The position numbers and the translations under genes were made by a program. From a virus (lineage: Duplodnaviria; Heunggongvirae; Uroviricota; Caudoviricetes): a stretch of 5,345 nucleotides of DNA. Positions 1,963-5,345 of the stretch are shown piece after piece. The stretch lies in the IMG/VR virus record IMGVR_UViG_2639762987_000006. One strand, given 5' to 3'. Numbering within the stretch: position 1 is the first letter of the stretch; every line of letters begins with the position of its first letter. Below the pieces are notes generated by a model. The model searched no databases and was not told where the DNA came from. It saw only the letters and a program-made list of their open reading frames with translations.

Positions 1963-2427
1963 TTATCTGAGGCATTGCTCTCGAATGTATAGCTGTGCCC
2001 CTTCAAGTTGTTTTTGCATTATTATCAGTCGCGCTCTGAGGGTGAAATAATCCCGTTCAGCGGTGTCTGCCAGTCGGGGGGAGGCTGCATTATCCACGCC
2101 GGAGGCGGTGGTGGCTTCACGCACTGACTGACAGACTGCTTTGATGTGCAACCGACGACGACCAGCGGCAACATCATCACGCAGAGCATCATTTTCAGCT
2201 TTCGCATCAGCTAACTCCTTCGTGTATTTTGCATCGAGCGCAGCAACATCACGCTGACGCATCTGCATGTCAGTAATTGCCGCGTTCGCCAGCTTCAGTT
2301 CTCTGACATTTTTGTCGCGCTGGGCTTTGTAGGTAATGGCGTTATCACGGTAATGATTCAGCCCCAGACTAAGCGCACCACAGGCCGCCAGCAGGGCAAT
2401 GATGACCACGCACAGTACGCGGTTCAT
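1963..2427 (-). CDS. Rz: Rz, spanin inner-membrane subunit (i-spanin), lambda type, 154 aa
   Basis: Tracked ORF. Its translation (…[18 protein letters not shown]…[82 protein letters not shown]…) closely matches lambda Rz as I remember it. It has an N-terminal transmembrane segment, and a second gene is embedded in its +1 frame. Confidence 0.9.
2025..2207 (-). CDS. Rz1: Rz1, spanin outer-membrane lipoprotein subunit (o-spanin), 60 aa, wholly embedded in the +1 frame of Rz
   Basis: Tracked [63 protein letters not shown]. It has a lipoprotein signal with lipobox VVGC, a proline-rich mature part, and a strong Shine-Dalgarno sequence (AGGAG, 7-nt spacer) inside Rz. This matches lambda Rz1. Confidence 0.88.
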
Positions 2428-2428
2428 T

Positions 2429-2527
2429 TCACCACCAGCGTATCTGACCGATGAAATAACCGGAGGCCATAATCACAAACACCAGCCAGATAAGAATGAA
2501 CTTCCAGGTGGATAATTTTTCAGCCAT
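2429..2527 (-). CDS. Candidate small membrane peptide, 32 aa ([32 protein letters not shown]), translationally coupled to Rz
   Basis: Hand translation; the ORF is below the size cutoff of the supplied track. It has an ATG start (2525..2527), GGGAGA 8 nt upstream, and one predicted transmembrane helix flanked by Trp. Its TGA stop (2429..2431) is one nucleotide from the Rz ATG (minus strand: TGAaATG). Whether it is expressed is unproven. Confidence 0.35.
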
Positions 2528-2602
2528 CACTCGAATCTCCCGAATCAGTTTGCTAAAATCAAACACACTTTCTCCTTTGACTTTTCCGGAGTCAGGAAAC
2601 AC

Positions 2603-2636
2603 AAAACCCCGCTTGGTGCCAACAAACGGGGTTTTT
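2603..2636 (-). terminator. Terminator-like GC-rich hairpin (stem CCCCG 2607..2611 / CGGGG 2627..2631, extended by A·T pairs) with T-tracts on both sides, lying between the endolysin and Rz
   Basis: Seen in the sequence. On the minus strand it follows the endolysin stop by about 90 nt and is followed by TTTTGTGTTT; on the plus strand it is followed by TTTTTACTTTT. It could terminate in either direction or act as an attenuator. Confidence 0.4.
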
Positions 2637-2725
2637 ACTTTTATTCACTTACGTTTCGCCAGTTCGCAGGATTTCATGTTATCCGCCCGCGTGGCCATGC
2701 CTTATTTTTCAGCAAAATATTCTGC

Positions 2726-3259
2726 TTATCTGTCGATACCCCAGCACGCCAGCGCGCTCTCCTGGTCACGACGGGATACCTGACCGTAGCAGTTGTTTGA
2801 ACGAATACGGCAGTCTCTGCCACCGTCCTTAATCCACCAGCGAATCGCCTCACACGCTCCCCTGCGATCACCTGCATTAATTCGTTTATAAAACGTCGAC
2901 GGGAAACACTTACTGGGACCAATGTTGTACGGACAGAATGACGCGATCCCCGCTTTCTGGGGTTCGCTCAATGGCACTTTGATGTTTTTCTCCACCCATG
3001 CCAGCGCCTTATCACGCTCAATGGCGTTGACCTGGTCGCATTTTTCCTTCGACAGTTTCATACCGGGAAAAACGGGTTTTCCATCCACCATCGTGGCCCC
3101 CCGACAGATGGTCCAGATGCCGGAACCATCGCGGTATGCCGTTGTGTGGTTACCCTCTTTTTCGTCCAGAAACTGGTCAAGTATCTGAGGAGCAGACGCG
3201 CCTGCAGCAATCAGCGCCAGAACAGCAGCTGACAGGGCGTATTTGATTTTTGCGCTCAT
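2726..3259 (-). CDS. R: Phage endolysin of the T4-lysozyme type (glycoside hydrolase family 24), 177 aa, with an N-terminal SAR or signal segment (RrrQ-like)
   Basis: Tracked ORF. The catalytic triad spacing E-x8-D-x5-T in …DEKEGNHTTAYRDGSGIWT… is that of T4 lysozyme. The N-terminus MSAKIKYALSAAVLALIAAGASAP is a weakly hydrophobic Ala/Gly-rich segment. It pairs with an S21-type pinholin upstream. Length and sequence match my recollection of E. coli prophage lysozyme RrrQ. Confidence 0.9.
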   Translation of the reverse strand: MSAKIKYALSAAVLALIAAGASAPQILDQFLDEKEGNHTTAYRDGSGIWTICRGATMVDGKPVFPGMKLSKEKCDQVNAIERDKALAWVEKNIKVPLSEPQKAGIASFCPYNIGPSKCFPSTFYKRINAGDRRGACEAIRWWIKDGGRDCRIRSNNCYGQVSRRDQESALACWGIDR

Positions 3260-3314
3260 GGATATTTATCAGGATGCTACCAATGAAAGATACCGGAAAG
3301 CCAACTGCAAAAAG

Positions 3315-3629
3315 CTAACAACCCGTAATCGAGTTATCAGAACTGTTAATTTTTATGGTATACCGCGCCTCTGAACAGGGGCGCGTTTCTGGCAACAGCT
3401 CGTCCCCTTCACATAACCCGGCAGCAACATCCAGGAAGACCTGTCTGATGCTCCTTCTGGCTGCTGCCTCATAAAACTCCAGCGCGGCACCTTCAACACG
3501 GTCCAGCGAGATGTCCAGGTCAAAAATTTCACCGTCAAAGCGTTCTTTGTCCCGTAACGCTAAAGTTACCGTAACTTTATTCTCAAAATTGCGGATCCCT
3601 TTCACAATCAGTTCATATTTTTGAGTCAT
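3315..3629 (-). CDS. ydfR: DUF1327-family protein (YdfR-like), 104 aa, lying between holin and endolysin; function unknown
   Basis: Tracked ORF. Its ATG at 3629 is 4 nt after the holin stop, with GGAGAG upstream. It has no signal peptide or transmembrane segment. Position and sequence match my recollection of YdfR in the Qin prophage lysis cluster. Confidence 0.75.
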   Translation of the reverse strand: MTQKYELIVKGIRNFENKVTVTLALRDKERFDGEIFDLDISLDRVEGAALEFYEAAARRSIRQVFLDVAAGLCEGDELLPETRPCSEARYTIKINSSDNSITGC

Positions 3630-3633
3630 TGAA

Positions 3634-3849
3634 TTACTCTCCCCGTGCAGCCTTACGCTTGTCTTCTTTAATCTTGAAATAAAGGTTTGTCAGGTACGTC
3701 AGCAGGCCAAATACCAGGCTACCCAGCACACCTATTGCTGCCCACTGTGAGGGCGTGACTTTATCGAGCAGCTGTAAAAACCAGTAGCCAGCACTGCCTG
3801 CGGAGGTGCCGTAGGCAATGCCTGTTGAAATTTTGTCCATGGATTTCAT
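3634..3849 (-). CDS. S: Class II holin / pinholin of the phage 21 S type, 71 aa, with a dual-start motif
   Basis: The tracked ORF (3634..3906) was trimmed to the ATG at 3849, which has GAGGTGAGG 5–6 nt upstream. The product [71 protein letters not shown] has two transmembrane segments and a basic C-terminus, and closely matches phage 21 S21 / EssD / EssQ as I remember them. The starts at Met1 and Met4 (MKSM) would give the antiholin and holin forms. Confidence 0.88.
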
Positions 3850-3949
3850 AGCCTCACCTCCGCACGGAACGGATGGCATAGTTATTATGTGTAGGCTTCC
3901 AGACACATCAATCGGAGCCTTAATTGATATATATGCTGGAGACGATGCA

Positions 3950-3975
3950 ATATAAAAAGCTCGCCGTAGCGAGCT
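3950..3975 (-). terminator. Rho-independent terminator on the minus strand: stem GCTCGC (3959..3964) / GCGAGC (3969..3974), loop CGTA, followed on the minus strand by TTTTTATATT
   Basis: Seen in the sequence. The perfect 6-bp GC-rich stem with a U-tract is canonical on the minus strand only. It lies between the lipoprotein genes and the holin. Confidence 0.55.
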
Positions 3976-4100
3976 AATAAAATGTATTTCTCTGATATTA
4001 TGTTTATTTGTATTAGCTCAGACTTGACATCACAGGTTTCGTATATAGAACATCATCAAATCTGTCAGTTTGCTATGAATGAGATATAGTAATTGAAGAG

Positions 4101-4496
4101 CTAACCTCGCATGTCAAAGCCAGATTTCTGAAAATCTCTGTAGACTTCCGGATTGTTGAAGGCCGGAAATTTGGCTTTATGAGCTGCGGACTTTATCGCT
4201 TCGCAATAGGCTTTATCACCGTTACTGGTAGATATTTTTAACGCCGTGCCATCCTGAGAGAATTCCATATGCAACCTGCATTTTTTCCCTTTCCAGTTAT
4301 GCGGCTCATCAAGTTTGGCATTAATTGCAGCTCTGATTCCCCGCGCTTGCGCCCCCCATTCATCCTGATCATCCCAGCGTCCTGAACTGCAACTACCTGT
4401 AGCAGTAGTTTTGTGGCAATCTGAAGGGTGTAAAGGTGTGCATCCCGCAACAAAACCGACCCAAAAAGTCAACATAACGATTTTCTTTAATCCCAC
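4101..4496 (-). CDS. Lipoprotein with a divergent TolA C-terminal (domain III)-like domain, 131 aa precursor
   Basis: Tracked ORF with a GTG start at 4496 (GAGGAG 6 nt upstream). The signal peptide MGLKKIVMLTFWVGFVAGC carries lipobox VAGC, and Thr at +2 predicts outer-membrane sorting. The C-terminal half (…KKCRLHMEF…GDKAYCEAIKSAAHKAKFPAFNNPEVYRDFQ…) shares its Cys pair and PEVY…FQ motif with the neighbouring TolA-III-like paralog. Confidence 0.75.
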   Translation of the reverse strand: MGLKKIVMLTFWVGFVAGCTPLHPSDCHKTTATGSCSSGRWDDQDEWGAQARGIRAAINAKLDEPHNWKGKKCRLHMEFSQDGTALKISTSNGDKAYCEAIKSAAHKAKFPAFNNPEVYRDFQKSGFDMRG

Positions 4497-4646
4497 TTCT
4501 TGCTCCTCAATCCATTAAAATCTCAGCAATAGTAGTTGTTACGTCCGCCACTGGCTCAGAGTTGACTATCCGCTAAATTTAGCTCAGTGCCGTAGTTGTG
4601 TCAGAACAAACCTAAGCCGAAACCGTTTATTACAAAACAATAAATA

Positions 4647-5075
4647 TCAGGGTTTAAAATCCAGCACCCCATTTTGAAATACTTTATATACTTCCGGCGA
4701 AGGGGGGGCAGGTATATCAGCATTCTTTATCGCATTCATCGCTTCACGACATAAATCGAGGTCTCCACTTTCTCTTTTAACCTCCAGTAGAAGGCCATTC
4801 GGGGCCATATGCATTCTCAGTGTACACTCTTTTCCTGAATACTTACTCGCATCCCCGAACTGTTTTTCGATGGCGCTCTTGATTTGATGGGCATACAGAC
4901 GGATATCCTCACTAACATCAGAAGTACGTTCAGATGAACTCACATACTGTGTCTCTATTGCTTTATCGGAGTAATATGATGTACGGTCATGATAATTTGT
5001 CGATACAGCATCAGTGCACCCGATAATAATCCCACTAATAATCAACGTAAGAATTGATGCGCTACGAAAACCCAT
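4647..5075 (-). CDS. Lipoprotein carrying a TolA C-terminal domain III homolog, 142 aa precursor
   Basis: Tracked ORF with an ATG at 5075 (GAGGA 5 nt upstream). The signal peptide MGFRSASILTLIISGIIIGC carries lipobox IIGC, followed by a Ser/Thr-rich linker. The C-terminal ~85 aa (…QIKSAIEKQFGDASKYSGKECTLRMHMAPNGLLLEVKRESGDLDLCREAMNAIKNADIPAPPSPEVYKVFQNGVLDFKP) aligns closely with the C-terminus of E. coli TolA as I remember it (…QIKSAIESKFYDASSYAGKTCTLRIKLAPDGMLLDIKPEGGDPALCQAALAAAKLAKIPKPPSQAVYEVFKNAPLDFKP). Confidence 0.8.
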   Translation of the reverse strand: MGFRSASILTLIISGIIIGCTDAVSTNYHDRTSYYSDKAIETQYVSSSERTSDVSEDIRLYAHQIKSAIEKQFGDASKYSGKECTLRMHMAPNGLLLEVKRESGDLDLCREAMNAIKNADIPAPPSPEVYKVFQNGVLDFKP

Positions 5076-5104
5076 TTTTCCTCACATATGTCATATAGTA
5101 AAGG

Positions 5105-5134
5105 ATTATATATACCGTTGTTTTGGACGCTCAA
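5105..5134 (-). promoter_or_regulatory. Candidate sigma70 promoter for the TolA-like lipoprotein genes (minus strand): -35 TTGAGC (5129..5134), 18-nt spacer, -10 TATAAT (5105..5110)
   Basis: Read from the minus strand: a perfect -10 hexamer about 30 nt upstream of the ATG at 5075, with a 4/6 match at -35. Confidence 0.3.
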
Positions 5135-5345
5135 ACAGCGAATCAGATCAAATAAAACGCACATTTGTTAACATTTACACAAAGTCTGCGTGGGATATTC
5201 TGAAAGAATATCCATAATGTGGAGAGAATCTATTGAAGTGCATGGTGCCGGGTGCCTCCCGGTGAATTCAGTACCAGCACCTGAATCCGCGATTATCCCA
5301 TATACCTACTCGCTGATTGCCCCTCCGCACAGGGGGATTCACCAT

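Follow-up and report, generated by a model that had tools for sequence, protein, structure and literature searches.

Two TolA-III-domain lipoprotein genes in the Q–S cargo slot of a lambdoid prophage: candidate receptor-domain decoys

The stretch of DNA analysed here (the window) is 5,345 nucleotides (nt) long, belongs to the IMG/VR virus record IMGVR_UViG_2639762987_000006, and is the late region of a Qin/mEp460-like lambdoid prophage. Its positions 3900-5345 are 100% identical to Escherichia coli chromosomes such as that of MS6198, and 99.9% identical to phage mEp460_ev081. The minus strand holds all the relevant elements: the 3' part of a small RNA (sRNA) gene, a promoter-like site, gene A, gene B, an intrinsic terminator, a holin gene and further lysis genes. 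Genes A and B are the subject of this analysis. Each of them almost certainly encodes a protein in which a flexible tether of 20-30 residues connects a domain of the TolA-III type to a predicted lipoprotein anchor. According to a preliminary description of the window, the late strand carries a tandem of two TolA-III lipoprotein genes right before the holin gene, and the open reading frames (ORFs) and their Pfam matches bear this arrangement out.

The two lipoproteins

Gene A (4647..5075, minus strand) encodes a lipoprotein precursor of 142 residues, as judged from the ORF, the Pfam match and a structure model. The precursor consists of a signal peptide, the lipobox cysteine Cys20, a disordered tether of about 30 residues, and a TolA-III domain formed by residues 50-142. 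The protein matches the Pfam family of the TolA C-terminal domain (PF06519) with 82.6 bits (E 2e-23; the gathering score is 25) and the solved E. coli TolA-III chains directly with E 5e-28. Its identity to residues 334-421 of E. coli TolA is 59% (52/88). In the AlphaFold2 model, residues 1-49 are disordered or of low confidence and are followed by a confident TolA-III fold, which superimposes on the E. coli TolA-III structures with a template-modelling (TM) score of 0.88-0.90 and a root-mean-square deviation (rmsd) of 1.3 Å. Cysteines C84 and C109 align with the disulfide pair C363 and C388 of E. coli TolA-III. A Shine-Dalgarno sequence, GAGG, is found at 5083-5080, 4 nt before the ATG.

Gene B (4101..4496, minus strand) is defined by the same three kinds of evidence and encodes a precursor of 131 residues. 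Its lipobox cysteine, Cys19, is followed by a conserved Cys-rich N-terminal extension (C27, C36) and by a TolA-III domain that spans approximately residues 44 to 131. The match to PF06519 has 54.6 bits (E 1e-14), the match to the solved E. coli TolA-III chains has E 5e-09, and the identity to TolA-III is 34%. The first 39 residues of the AlphaFold2 model are disordered or of low confidence; the rest is a confident TolA-III fold (TM 0.85, rmsd 2.0 Å to the E. coli structures), in which C73 and C98 align with the same disulfide pair. Translation of B starts at a GTG. This start is supported by the sequence GAGGAG 6 nt upstream (4508-4503) and by the plasmid copies of the gene, which have an ATG at exactly the position of the GTG.

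The RefSeq annotation treats both genes differently. PGAP calls gene B from an internal ATG (124 residues), so that the n-region of the signal peptide, MGLKKIV, is lost; this start codon is probably wrong. Gene A bears the name 'tolA: cell envelope integrity protein TolA', which is misleading for a gene that encodes only the C-terminal domain on a lipoprotein anchor. The misannotated RefSeq counterparts of the two genes are found at 8202-8576 and 8748-9176 of locus L002.

The profile match, the fold and the aligned disulfide cysteines place both proteins in the PF06519 family. The fold is of the alpha/beta type, with three helices, a short extra helix and a three-stranded sheet, and the domains of the two models have predicted local distance difference test (pLDDT) values of 79-96. 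The top Foldseek matches of the models are 3qdp and 3qdr (TM 0.85-0.90, rmsd 1.3-2.0 Å), and the complex of TolA-III with the g3p protein of phage If1 (PDB 2x9a) is among the best structural matches. Neither protein is a bona fide TolA: the transmembrane domain I and the long helical domain II are both missing, and the genes lie outside the tolQRA-tolB-pal operon, next to an sRNA gene and a phage holin gene. The matches to the full-length TolA models cover only the C-terminal end of these models (positions 265-362 of 362 in PRK09510 and 293-386 of 387 in TIGR02794). The PRK09510 scores are 107.8 bits for A and 53.7 bits for B against a cut-off of 213. The TIGR02794 score of B, 47.2, is below the cut-off of 59.45, and that of A, 75.6, exceeds it on the strength of the C-terminal domain alone, which probably accounts for the PGAP name of A. 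Both proteins belong to PHROGs family 5772, annotated as being of unknown function. A search of the BFVD viral structures gave no significant match to the model of A.

The hydrophobic N-terminus of each protein ends in a lipobox that conforms to the pattern [LVI][ASTVI][GAS]C at the end of an n-h signal peptide: ...IIIG-C20 in A (IIG-C20 in the terms of the pattern) and ...FVAG-C19 in B (VAG-C19). The lipobox of B is conserved across its homologues. Both proteins have a threonine at position +2, and by the +2 rule a threonine in this position leads to Lol-dependent sorting to the outer membrane. Proteins A and B are thus predicted to be outer-membrane lipoproteins.

The partners of TolA-III attach to it by beta-strand addition, with strand beta3 serving the TolB N-terminus, the N1 domain of g3p and colicin N alike (PMC4339652; reviewed in PMC7391070). 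The TolA substitutions D418P and K420P abolish the binding of TolB, g3p and colicin N and produce a tol phenotype (PMC4339652). Colicin A contacts strand beta2 (residues 375-380) and lysines K368, K379 and K396 (PMC3365938). The beta3 edge, LDFKP, is retained exactly in A. The beta2 edge of A is near-identical (LLEVKR versus LLDIKP), and two of the three cation-pi lysines, K379 and K396, are kept. Protein B has a beta3-like edge, F-D-M-R (FDMRG), and none of the colicin A contacts. As far as can be read from the sequences, A thus keeps both known ligand edges of TolA-III and B only a beta3-like edge.

The N-terminal extension of mature B is a feature of its own. Residues 20-47 (window positions ~4356-4439) read PLHPSxCHKTTATGSCSSGRWDDQDEWG, contain two extra cysteines and two histidines, and are near-invariant across genera. 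The extension is as constrained as the domain, the ratio of nonsynonymous to synonymous substitution rates (dN/dS) being 0.10 in both. The AlphaFold2 model assigns no confident structure to it. The extension could form a disulfide loop, a metal site or a second binding epitope.

The cargo slot and the lysis region

Homology to other lambdoid phages delimits the position of the two genes from both sides. In the Qin prophage of K-12, the backbone genes hokD, rem, DUF968 and Q are followed by essQ, ydfR, rrrQ and rzpQ, and cspF, cspB and two small genes are found between Q and essQ. The homology of the window to Qin spans the holin gene and ends 27 nt upstream of its start, at window position 3876. 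At the other end of the pair, positions 5236-5345 have 99% identity to the segment of Shigella phage 75/02 that immediately follows stx1B (99-100% in Shiga toxin 1 (Stx1) phages). In an Stx1 phage, nanS-p and small genes come next after this flank and before the holin. These boundaries place the A-B pair in the classical Q–S cargo position, in which DLP12 carries nmpC. The Q gene itself lies outside the window. In the identical loci of MS6198 and mEp460_ev081, the Q antiterminator gene is on the same strand about 1.3 kb upstream of gene A, and a tRNA-Met gene and a DUF3927 gene are situated in between.

The assignment to this slot in the preliminary description, which had also proposed a comparison with stx and csp cargo in related prophages, therefore holds: cspF/cspB in Qin and stx with nanS-p in Stx phages occupy the same position. 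The pair is inserted between conserved phage modules and is exchangeable with other cargo, as is expected of a moron. The individual ribosome-binding sites that had been described for the two genes are those given above, GAGG and GAGGAG. The regulatory elements that had been proposed to flank the pair fare differently. The terminator downstream is canonical, and it is situated outside the positions to which the earlier account was confined; for the promoter upstream there is a match that is suggestive only. Taken together, the ribosome-binding sites, the promoter-like site and the terminator form what, from sequence features, is a moron-like architecture.

The promoter-like site, TTGAGC-18-TATAAT (5105..5134, minus strand), agrees with the sigma-70 consensus in 10 of 12 positions and lies 30 nt upstream of the ATG of gene A. 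Of 81 A-B loci, 80 share the surrounding segment, 5076-5185, at an identity of 99% or more. A weaker site in the 150-nt spacer between A and B, CTGACA-17-TAAATT (4576..4604, minus strand), has 9 of 12 matches, which is the level of chance. The intrinsic terminator between B and the holin gene (3950..3975, minus strand) was found by folding and by its pattern, AGCUCGC-UACG-GCGAGCU followed by UUUUUAUAUU. Its hairpin (3975..3958) has a 7-bp stem, a UACG loop and a U5 tract, with a folding energy of -13.8 kcal/mol and a z score of -2.5. Exact copies are confined to the A-B loci, of which 76 of 83 have one.

These 83 loci comprise the 80 IMG/VR loci returned by the search and the loci of Shigella flexneri, MS6198 and mEp460. 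The spacing is constant in 81 of them (gene A, 153 nt, gene B, 254 nt, holin gene), with proteins that are 97-100% identical. The two exceptions are L091, in which A is truncated, and L022, which contains insertions: about 1.2 kb of extra DNA between A and B and about 1.3 kb between B and the holin gene. In L022 the terminator has remained with B. The holin is 97-100% identical in all 83 loci. At least three different sets of endolysin and Rz genes follow the A-B-holin cassette, and the type of Q and the 5' part of the sRNA gene vary upstream of it. The conserved block extends from approximately 5266, inside the sRNA gene, to approximately 3647, at the end of the holin gene, in 46-50 loci. In 46 A-B loci the homology stops at 5266 within the sRNA gene, so that differing 5' variants of the sRNA precede the same cassette. 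The idea that the pair is an independently mobile moron with its own promoter was rejected, as on these data the pair is inseparable from the holin and the 3' end of the sRNA. The cassette is present in 772-784 of 5,426 complete E. coli genomes (~14%) and, by tblastn, in a single phage record (mEp460_ev081) out of 50,697.

The sRNA gene (5186..5345, minus strand) belongs to the prophage members of the STnc100 family. Its 3' two-thirds are in the window, the end of which cuts the gene, and match Rfam RF02076 over model positions 32-206 with 91.1 bits (the gathering score is 47). The holin gene (3634..3849, minus strand) encodes an S21-type (pin)holin, EssD (Pfam Phage_holin_2_1, 121 bits; essD in PGAP), and is the first gene of the lysis cassette. 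The rest of the cassette (1963..3629, minus strand) was assigned from profile matches and PGAP and consists of genes for a YdfR/DUF1327 protein (3629..3315), a signal-arrest-release (SAR)-type lysozyme (3259..2726) and Rz (2427..1963) with embedded Rz1 (2207..2025). The gap that separates the lysozyme gene from Rz contains an unannotated ORF of 57 codons (2429-2645, minus strand), residues 13-57 of which match PHROG 6632 (E 1e-29; annotated as function unknown). It is preceded by a long terminator-like hairpin of 13 pairs (2635..2603).

The DUF1398 (YdfO/YbcV-like) gene at 1203-1643 is on the plus strand. These coordinates are those of the mechanical ORF, which begins with the GTG at 1203; the PGAP start is an ATG 30 nt downstream (MDQVV..., 136 residues), and in the long form the Pfam match does not start until residue 18. 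At 230-290 the sequence consists of 61 consecutive N, a masked or unassembled stretch, and ORFs that span it are meaningless. The G+C content is 0.37-0.48 in the cargo block (3850-5200) and 0.46-0.55 in the lysis genes; AT-richness is common for morons.

Origin, spread and selection

The nearest relatives of B are found outside phages. They are 65-89% identical to B and are single genes, on plasmids and on the chromosomes of other genera, with neither A nor phage genes nearby. The B lineage comprises at least 370 clusters at 90% identity across Citrobacter, Enterobacter, Klebsiella, Raoultella and Serratia. Among representative genomes of the Enterobacterales, B is a single chromosomal gene in 29 other species, again with no A, holin or lysozyme gene nearby, and its chromosomal contexts are of at least 18 different kinds among 30 loci. 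A variant of A that is 66% identical occurs alone, without B, in other lambdoid prophages, where it is located between Q with an AraC-like gene and nanS-p and is followed by two strong terminators. The existence of the B lineage outside phages and of an A variant without B makes the tandem look like two separate acquisitions. From these sequence relationships, A and B are cargo genes of separate origin.

A B variant with 88% identity is carried on about 600 plasmid records and occupies 536 plasmid places in the complete E. coli genomes. On pO157 (L132, E. coli O157:H7 SS52, 4965-5396) the B-type gene lies between the psiB-psiA-hok region and toxB, and on the conjugative IncK2/Z plasmids and related ones (L133, an IncK2/Z plasmid, 4965-5396; also L126) it directly follows the relaxase gene. 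When prophage and plasmid copies are combined, a B-type gene is carried by about 23% of E. coli genomes. Subtraction gives about 37 genomes that have both a prophage and a plasmid copy, a number that clonal structure (e.g. that of O157) would confound. The homology between the phage, plasmid and chromosomal versions of B is confined to the ORF and 35-110 nt upstream of it; the possibility that the terminator or the promoter travels with B outside phages was rejected for this reason.

A third, distant TolA-III lipoprotein is encoded by the Klebsiella pneumoniae IncF plasmid pMR0617ctx (L134, 4217-5246). It has the lipobox LITAC and the C-terminus ALDFRL, adjoins a secreted thioredoxin-fold protein with a CVYC motif (DsbC/DsbG-like), and is found on about 300 plasmids of Klebsiella and Enterobacter. 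An exhaustive HMMER search with A gave 333 representative clusters. Among the best 150 of these, 87 are no longer than 190 residues, and at least 45 of the 87 have a strict lipobox. These clusters and the breadth of the B lineage indicate that free-standing TolA-III lipoproteins form a large family. The more distant short members P0172 and P0173 are on contigs too short to provide a context.

Some chromosomal B genes have neighbours of particular kinds. In Serratia marcescens (L008, 6957-8736), B lies beside GmrSD and a HEPN protein, both of which are supported by Pfam. Other neighbours were judged by eye from translations: a large AAA-type ATPase in Klebsiella indica (L100, 7320-8948), and bacteriocin-type exporters of the C39-peptidase/ABC class and a Fic-like protein among the downstream ORFs in Rouxiella and Serratia grimesii (L123, L124).

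In an alignment of 30 B sequences, 46 of the 131 columns are invariant and the mature part contains no indels. The dN/dS for these 30 genes is 0.10 at dS ~0.9, with equal values in the extension and in the domain. The gene is interrupted by premature stops, and is thus a pseudogene, in the reference genomes of two species, L118 (Enterobacter quasiroggenkampii) and L122 (Leclercia adecarboxylata NCTC13032), at ~6001-6390. The comparison of A with its 66% variant gives dN/dS values of 0.24 for the domain and 0.50 for the signal peptide with the tether. By these substitution patterns A and B are functional, constrained genes without a visible diversifying arms race.

Possible functions and known systems

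The conserved ligand edges and the spread of the genes on mobile elements fit the idea that A and B are tethered decoys of a receptor domain, which would confer tolerance to Tol-dependent colicins and filamentous phages. This reading is offered tentatively, as one whose chances fall somewhat short of even. The free TolA-III domains would compete near the outer membrane with the motor-coupled TolA for ligands that bind by strand addition. Candidate ligands are the N1 domain of the g3p of filamentous phages, colicin translocation domains (those of N and A, for example) and the TolB N-terminus, also where TolB is part of a colicin E-TolB translocon. A ligand caught by a domain that is uncoupled from TolQR would not be pulled in, and the lysogen or plasmid host would become tolerant to Tol-dependent colicins and refractory to filamentous phages. 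Since A copies both edges and B offers only the beta3-type edge and a Cys-rich N-terminal segment, the two proteins would cover different ligand sets.

The genes would be expressed in the lysogen from a promoter or promoters of their own, and the terminator would halt this transcription before the holin gene; late in the lytic cycle, expression by read-through is expected from the position of the genes. A host-protective function outside the lytic cycle fits the presence of such genes on conjugative plasmids and in prophage cargo slots, the defence genes near some of them, and the terminator before the holin. The Ff and If1 phages use conjugative pili as primary receptors, with TolA-III as the co-receptor. 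In 1993 Levengood-Freyermuth et al. reportedly found that E. coli cells with an excess of free periplasmic TolA-III tolerate colicins E1, E2, E3 and A and become leaky.

The same mechanism might extend to the whole family. Free-standing TolA-III lipoproteins could be a widespread, unrecognised form of receptor-domain decoy immunity, carried by prophages, by conjugative and virulence plasmids, and by chromosomal islets of the Enterobacterales; this generalisation is held with a little more reserve than the reading of A and B themselves. The TolA-binding epitopes of Tol-dependent colicins and pilus-specific filamentous phages, or those of TolB in colicin translocons, would be captured under the outer membrane, which would disconnect the invaders from the TolQRA motor. 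The prophage described here would combine two specificities, A being a near-perfect copy of the host TolA-III and B a pan-enterobacterial type.

Several observations weigh against a decoy function. The genes form part of the late operon and show tight linkage to the holin gene in every one of the 83 loci, which is compatible with a late, lysis-related role. The promoter-like matches in the region number 7, where 4.7 +/- 2.1 are expected from shuffled sequence; this is the level of chance, and the predicted site at 5105..5134 is therefore no more than suggestive. Most chromosomal copies of B stand among ordinary metabolic genes, and in Leclercia the context of B is common to five species and looks vertically inherited. 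The strong purifying selection on B across genera, with no diversification, is atypical of a decoy engaged in an arms race, and the conservation of B equally fits the binding of a conserved host partner such as TolB. Moreover, the binding of TolB by a decoy would harm the host's own Tol-Pal system, and some impairment of Tol-Pal would probably be the cost of the decoy. Finally, PADLOC has no model that matches A or B. A literature search on TolA-like lipoproteins of prophages and plasmids, the coverage of which was incomplete, found no study of these proteins; it yielded background alone, on TolA-III ligands and on STnc100/Pas sRNAs.

The proteins could instead be Tol-Pal inhibitors serving the lytic cycle of the phage, an alternative that is rather unlikely. 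High, Q-dependent expression late in infection would sequester the N-terminus of TolB, block the TolA-driven mobilisation of Pal and weaken the outer membrane, so that spanin-mediated lysis would be helped or vesicle release boosted. The place of the genes on the late strand and in the late operon, directly before the holin, agrees with this, as does a cassette that is 98-100% identical in 83 loci in front of variable endolysin and Rz genes. The beta3 edge, which binds TolB, is conserved in both proteins, and beta3 mutants of TolA that have lost TolB binding display the complete tol phenotype, outer-membrane leakiness included (PMC4339652). Purifying selection suits a conserved host target. 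However, B-type genes with 65-89% identity are found on plasmids and chromosomes that have no lysis genes near them, and the general function of the family can therefore not be phage lysis. The terminator parts the pair from the holin, an arrangement that is sensible only if the pair is also transcribed while the lysis genes have to be silent. Furthermore, most lambdoid phages lyse their hosts well without such genes, as the single record among the 50,697 illustrates.

It is likewise improbable that A and B are accessory proteins of the envelope whose physiological role has nothing to do with invaders and which mobile elements gained as a general fitness gene. Such a protein might be an auxiliary docking or buffering site for TolB at the outer membrane, or might act with a partner of the Cys-rich segment of B. 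This would be consistent with the constraint on B over its whole mature length, described above, with its solitary chromosomal copies amid ordinary genes in many Enterobacterales, syntenic in Leclercia, with the dozens of distinct clusters of short TolA-III lipoproteins, and with the pairing of the Klebsiella plasmid type with a DsbC-like protein. The occurrence of B is nevertheless patchy, as shown by its many contexts, its two pseudogenes and its presence in only about 23% of E. coli genomes. In being carried by prophages and plasmids it resembles a typical accessory or competitive trait, and the present data suggest no partner beyond the known ligands of TolA-III.

Two further explanations concern the origin of the genes. 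The preliminary description had spoken of a duplicated, diverging pair, that is, of a local tandem duplication of one decoy gene whose copies diverge under diversifying selection. The genes are indeed adjacent and co-oriented, and both match PHROG 5772. This origin is nonetheless very improbable and was rejected: A is 29% identical to B compared with 59% to the TolA-III of E. coli, the nearest relatives of B are single plasmid or chromosomal genes of a lineage that is wide outside phages, variants of A occur without B, and the selection on B (dN/dS ~0.1) is strongly purifying. That the genes are non-functional debris, captured 3' fragments of tolA, as the PGAP name of A and the few truncated copies (L091, L118, L122) might suggest, is hardly credible in view of the dN/dS values of 0.1-0.24, the acquired signal peptides with lipoboxes and ribosome-binding sites, the intact ORFs of fixed length in nearly all loci, and a cassette frequency of ~14% in complete E. 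coli genomes.

The A-B feature itself is real, common in E. coli and uncharacterised, and the functional idea of the preliminary description, superinfection exclusion or colicin tolerance, is plausible. If A and B are decoys, approximately 14% of complete E. coli genomes (~23% with the plasmid copies) hold a tolerance factor against group A colicins and filamentous phages. The mechanism, periplasmic mimicry of a co-receptor and not masking of a surface receptor, would be absent from current defence catalogues. It would matter for the gut ecology of colicins and for antimicrobial applications of colicins or engineered M13-type phages, and it could explain the presence of the gene on conjugative plasmids, which expose their hosts to pilus-specific filamentous phages. 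If the proteins are mainly Tol-Pal inhibitors, they would constitute a natural, genetically encoded means of modulating outer-membrane stability and vesiculation, which is of interest because pO157 and the prophages of Shiga toxin-producing E. coli carry such proteins.

The closest known structure is the TolA-III domain of E. coli itself (residues ~329-421; PDB 1S62, 3QDP, 1TOL, 2X9A, 3QDR), which shares its fold, its Pfam family and its disulfide pair with A and B. In contrast to E. coli TolA, A and B have neither the inner-membrane domain I nor the helical domain II, and hence no coupling to the TolQR motor. They have a lipoprotein signal peptide and a short disordered tether instead, and are encoded in a prophage cargo slot and not in the tol-pal operon. 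The construct of Levengood-Freyermuth, Click and Webster of 1993 (J Bacteriol 175:222) is said to have been a soluble, over-expressed free TolA-III made in the laboratory and present beside wild-type TolA. Proteins A and B differ from it in being natural, lipid-anchored by prediction, and present in two divergent versions on mobile elements; the phenotype reported for the construct is the one predicted here.

With regard to position, the other cargo of the Q–S slot, stxAB with nanS-p and cspF/cspB, lies on the late strand as the A-B pair does, and Stx phages have the same STnc100-type sRNA flank, whereas the gene contents are unrelated. With regard to logic, A and B resemble Cor (phi80, N15 and the mEp phages), Llp (T5) and TraT (F), which are likewise small, moron-like outer-membrane lipoproteins of mobile elements that protect the cell at the stage of entry. 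Cor and Llp also protect against colicins that share the receptor. The likeness is one of logic alone, since Pfam, PADLOC and PHROGs indicate no sequence relation. Cor and Llp inactivate the outer-membrane receptor FhuA, whereas A and B would mimic a periplasmic co-receptor and capture the incoming ligand. In cells infected with Ff phages, periplasmic g3p occupies TolA, and the cells become tolerant to colicins and resistant to superinfection. This immunity is the mirror image of the mechanism proposed here: in the case of g3p a ligand of the invader blocks the receptor, whereas A and B would be copies of the receptor that soak up the ligand, with the same predicted outcome.

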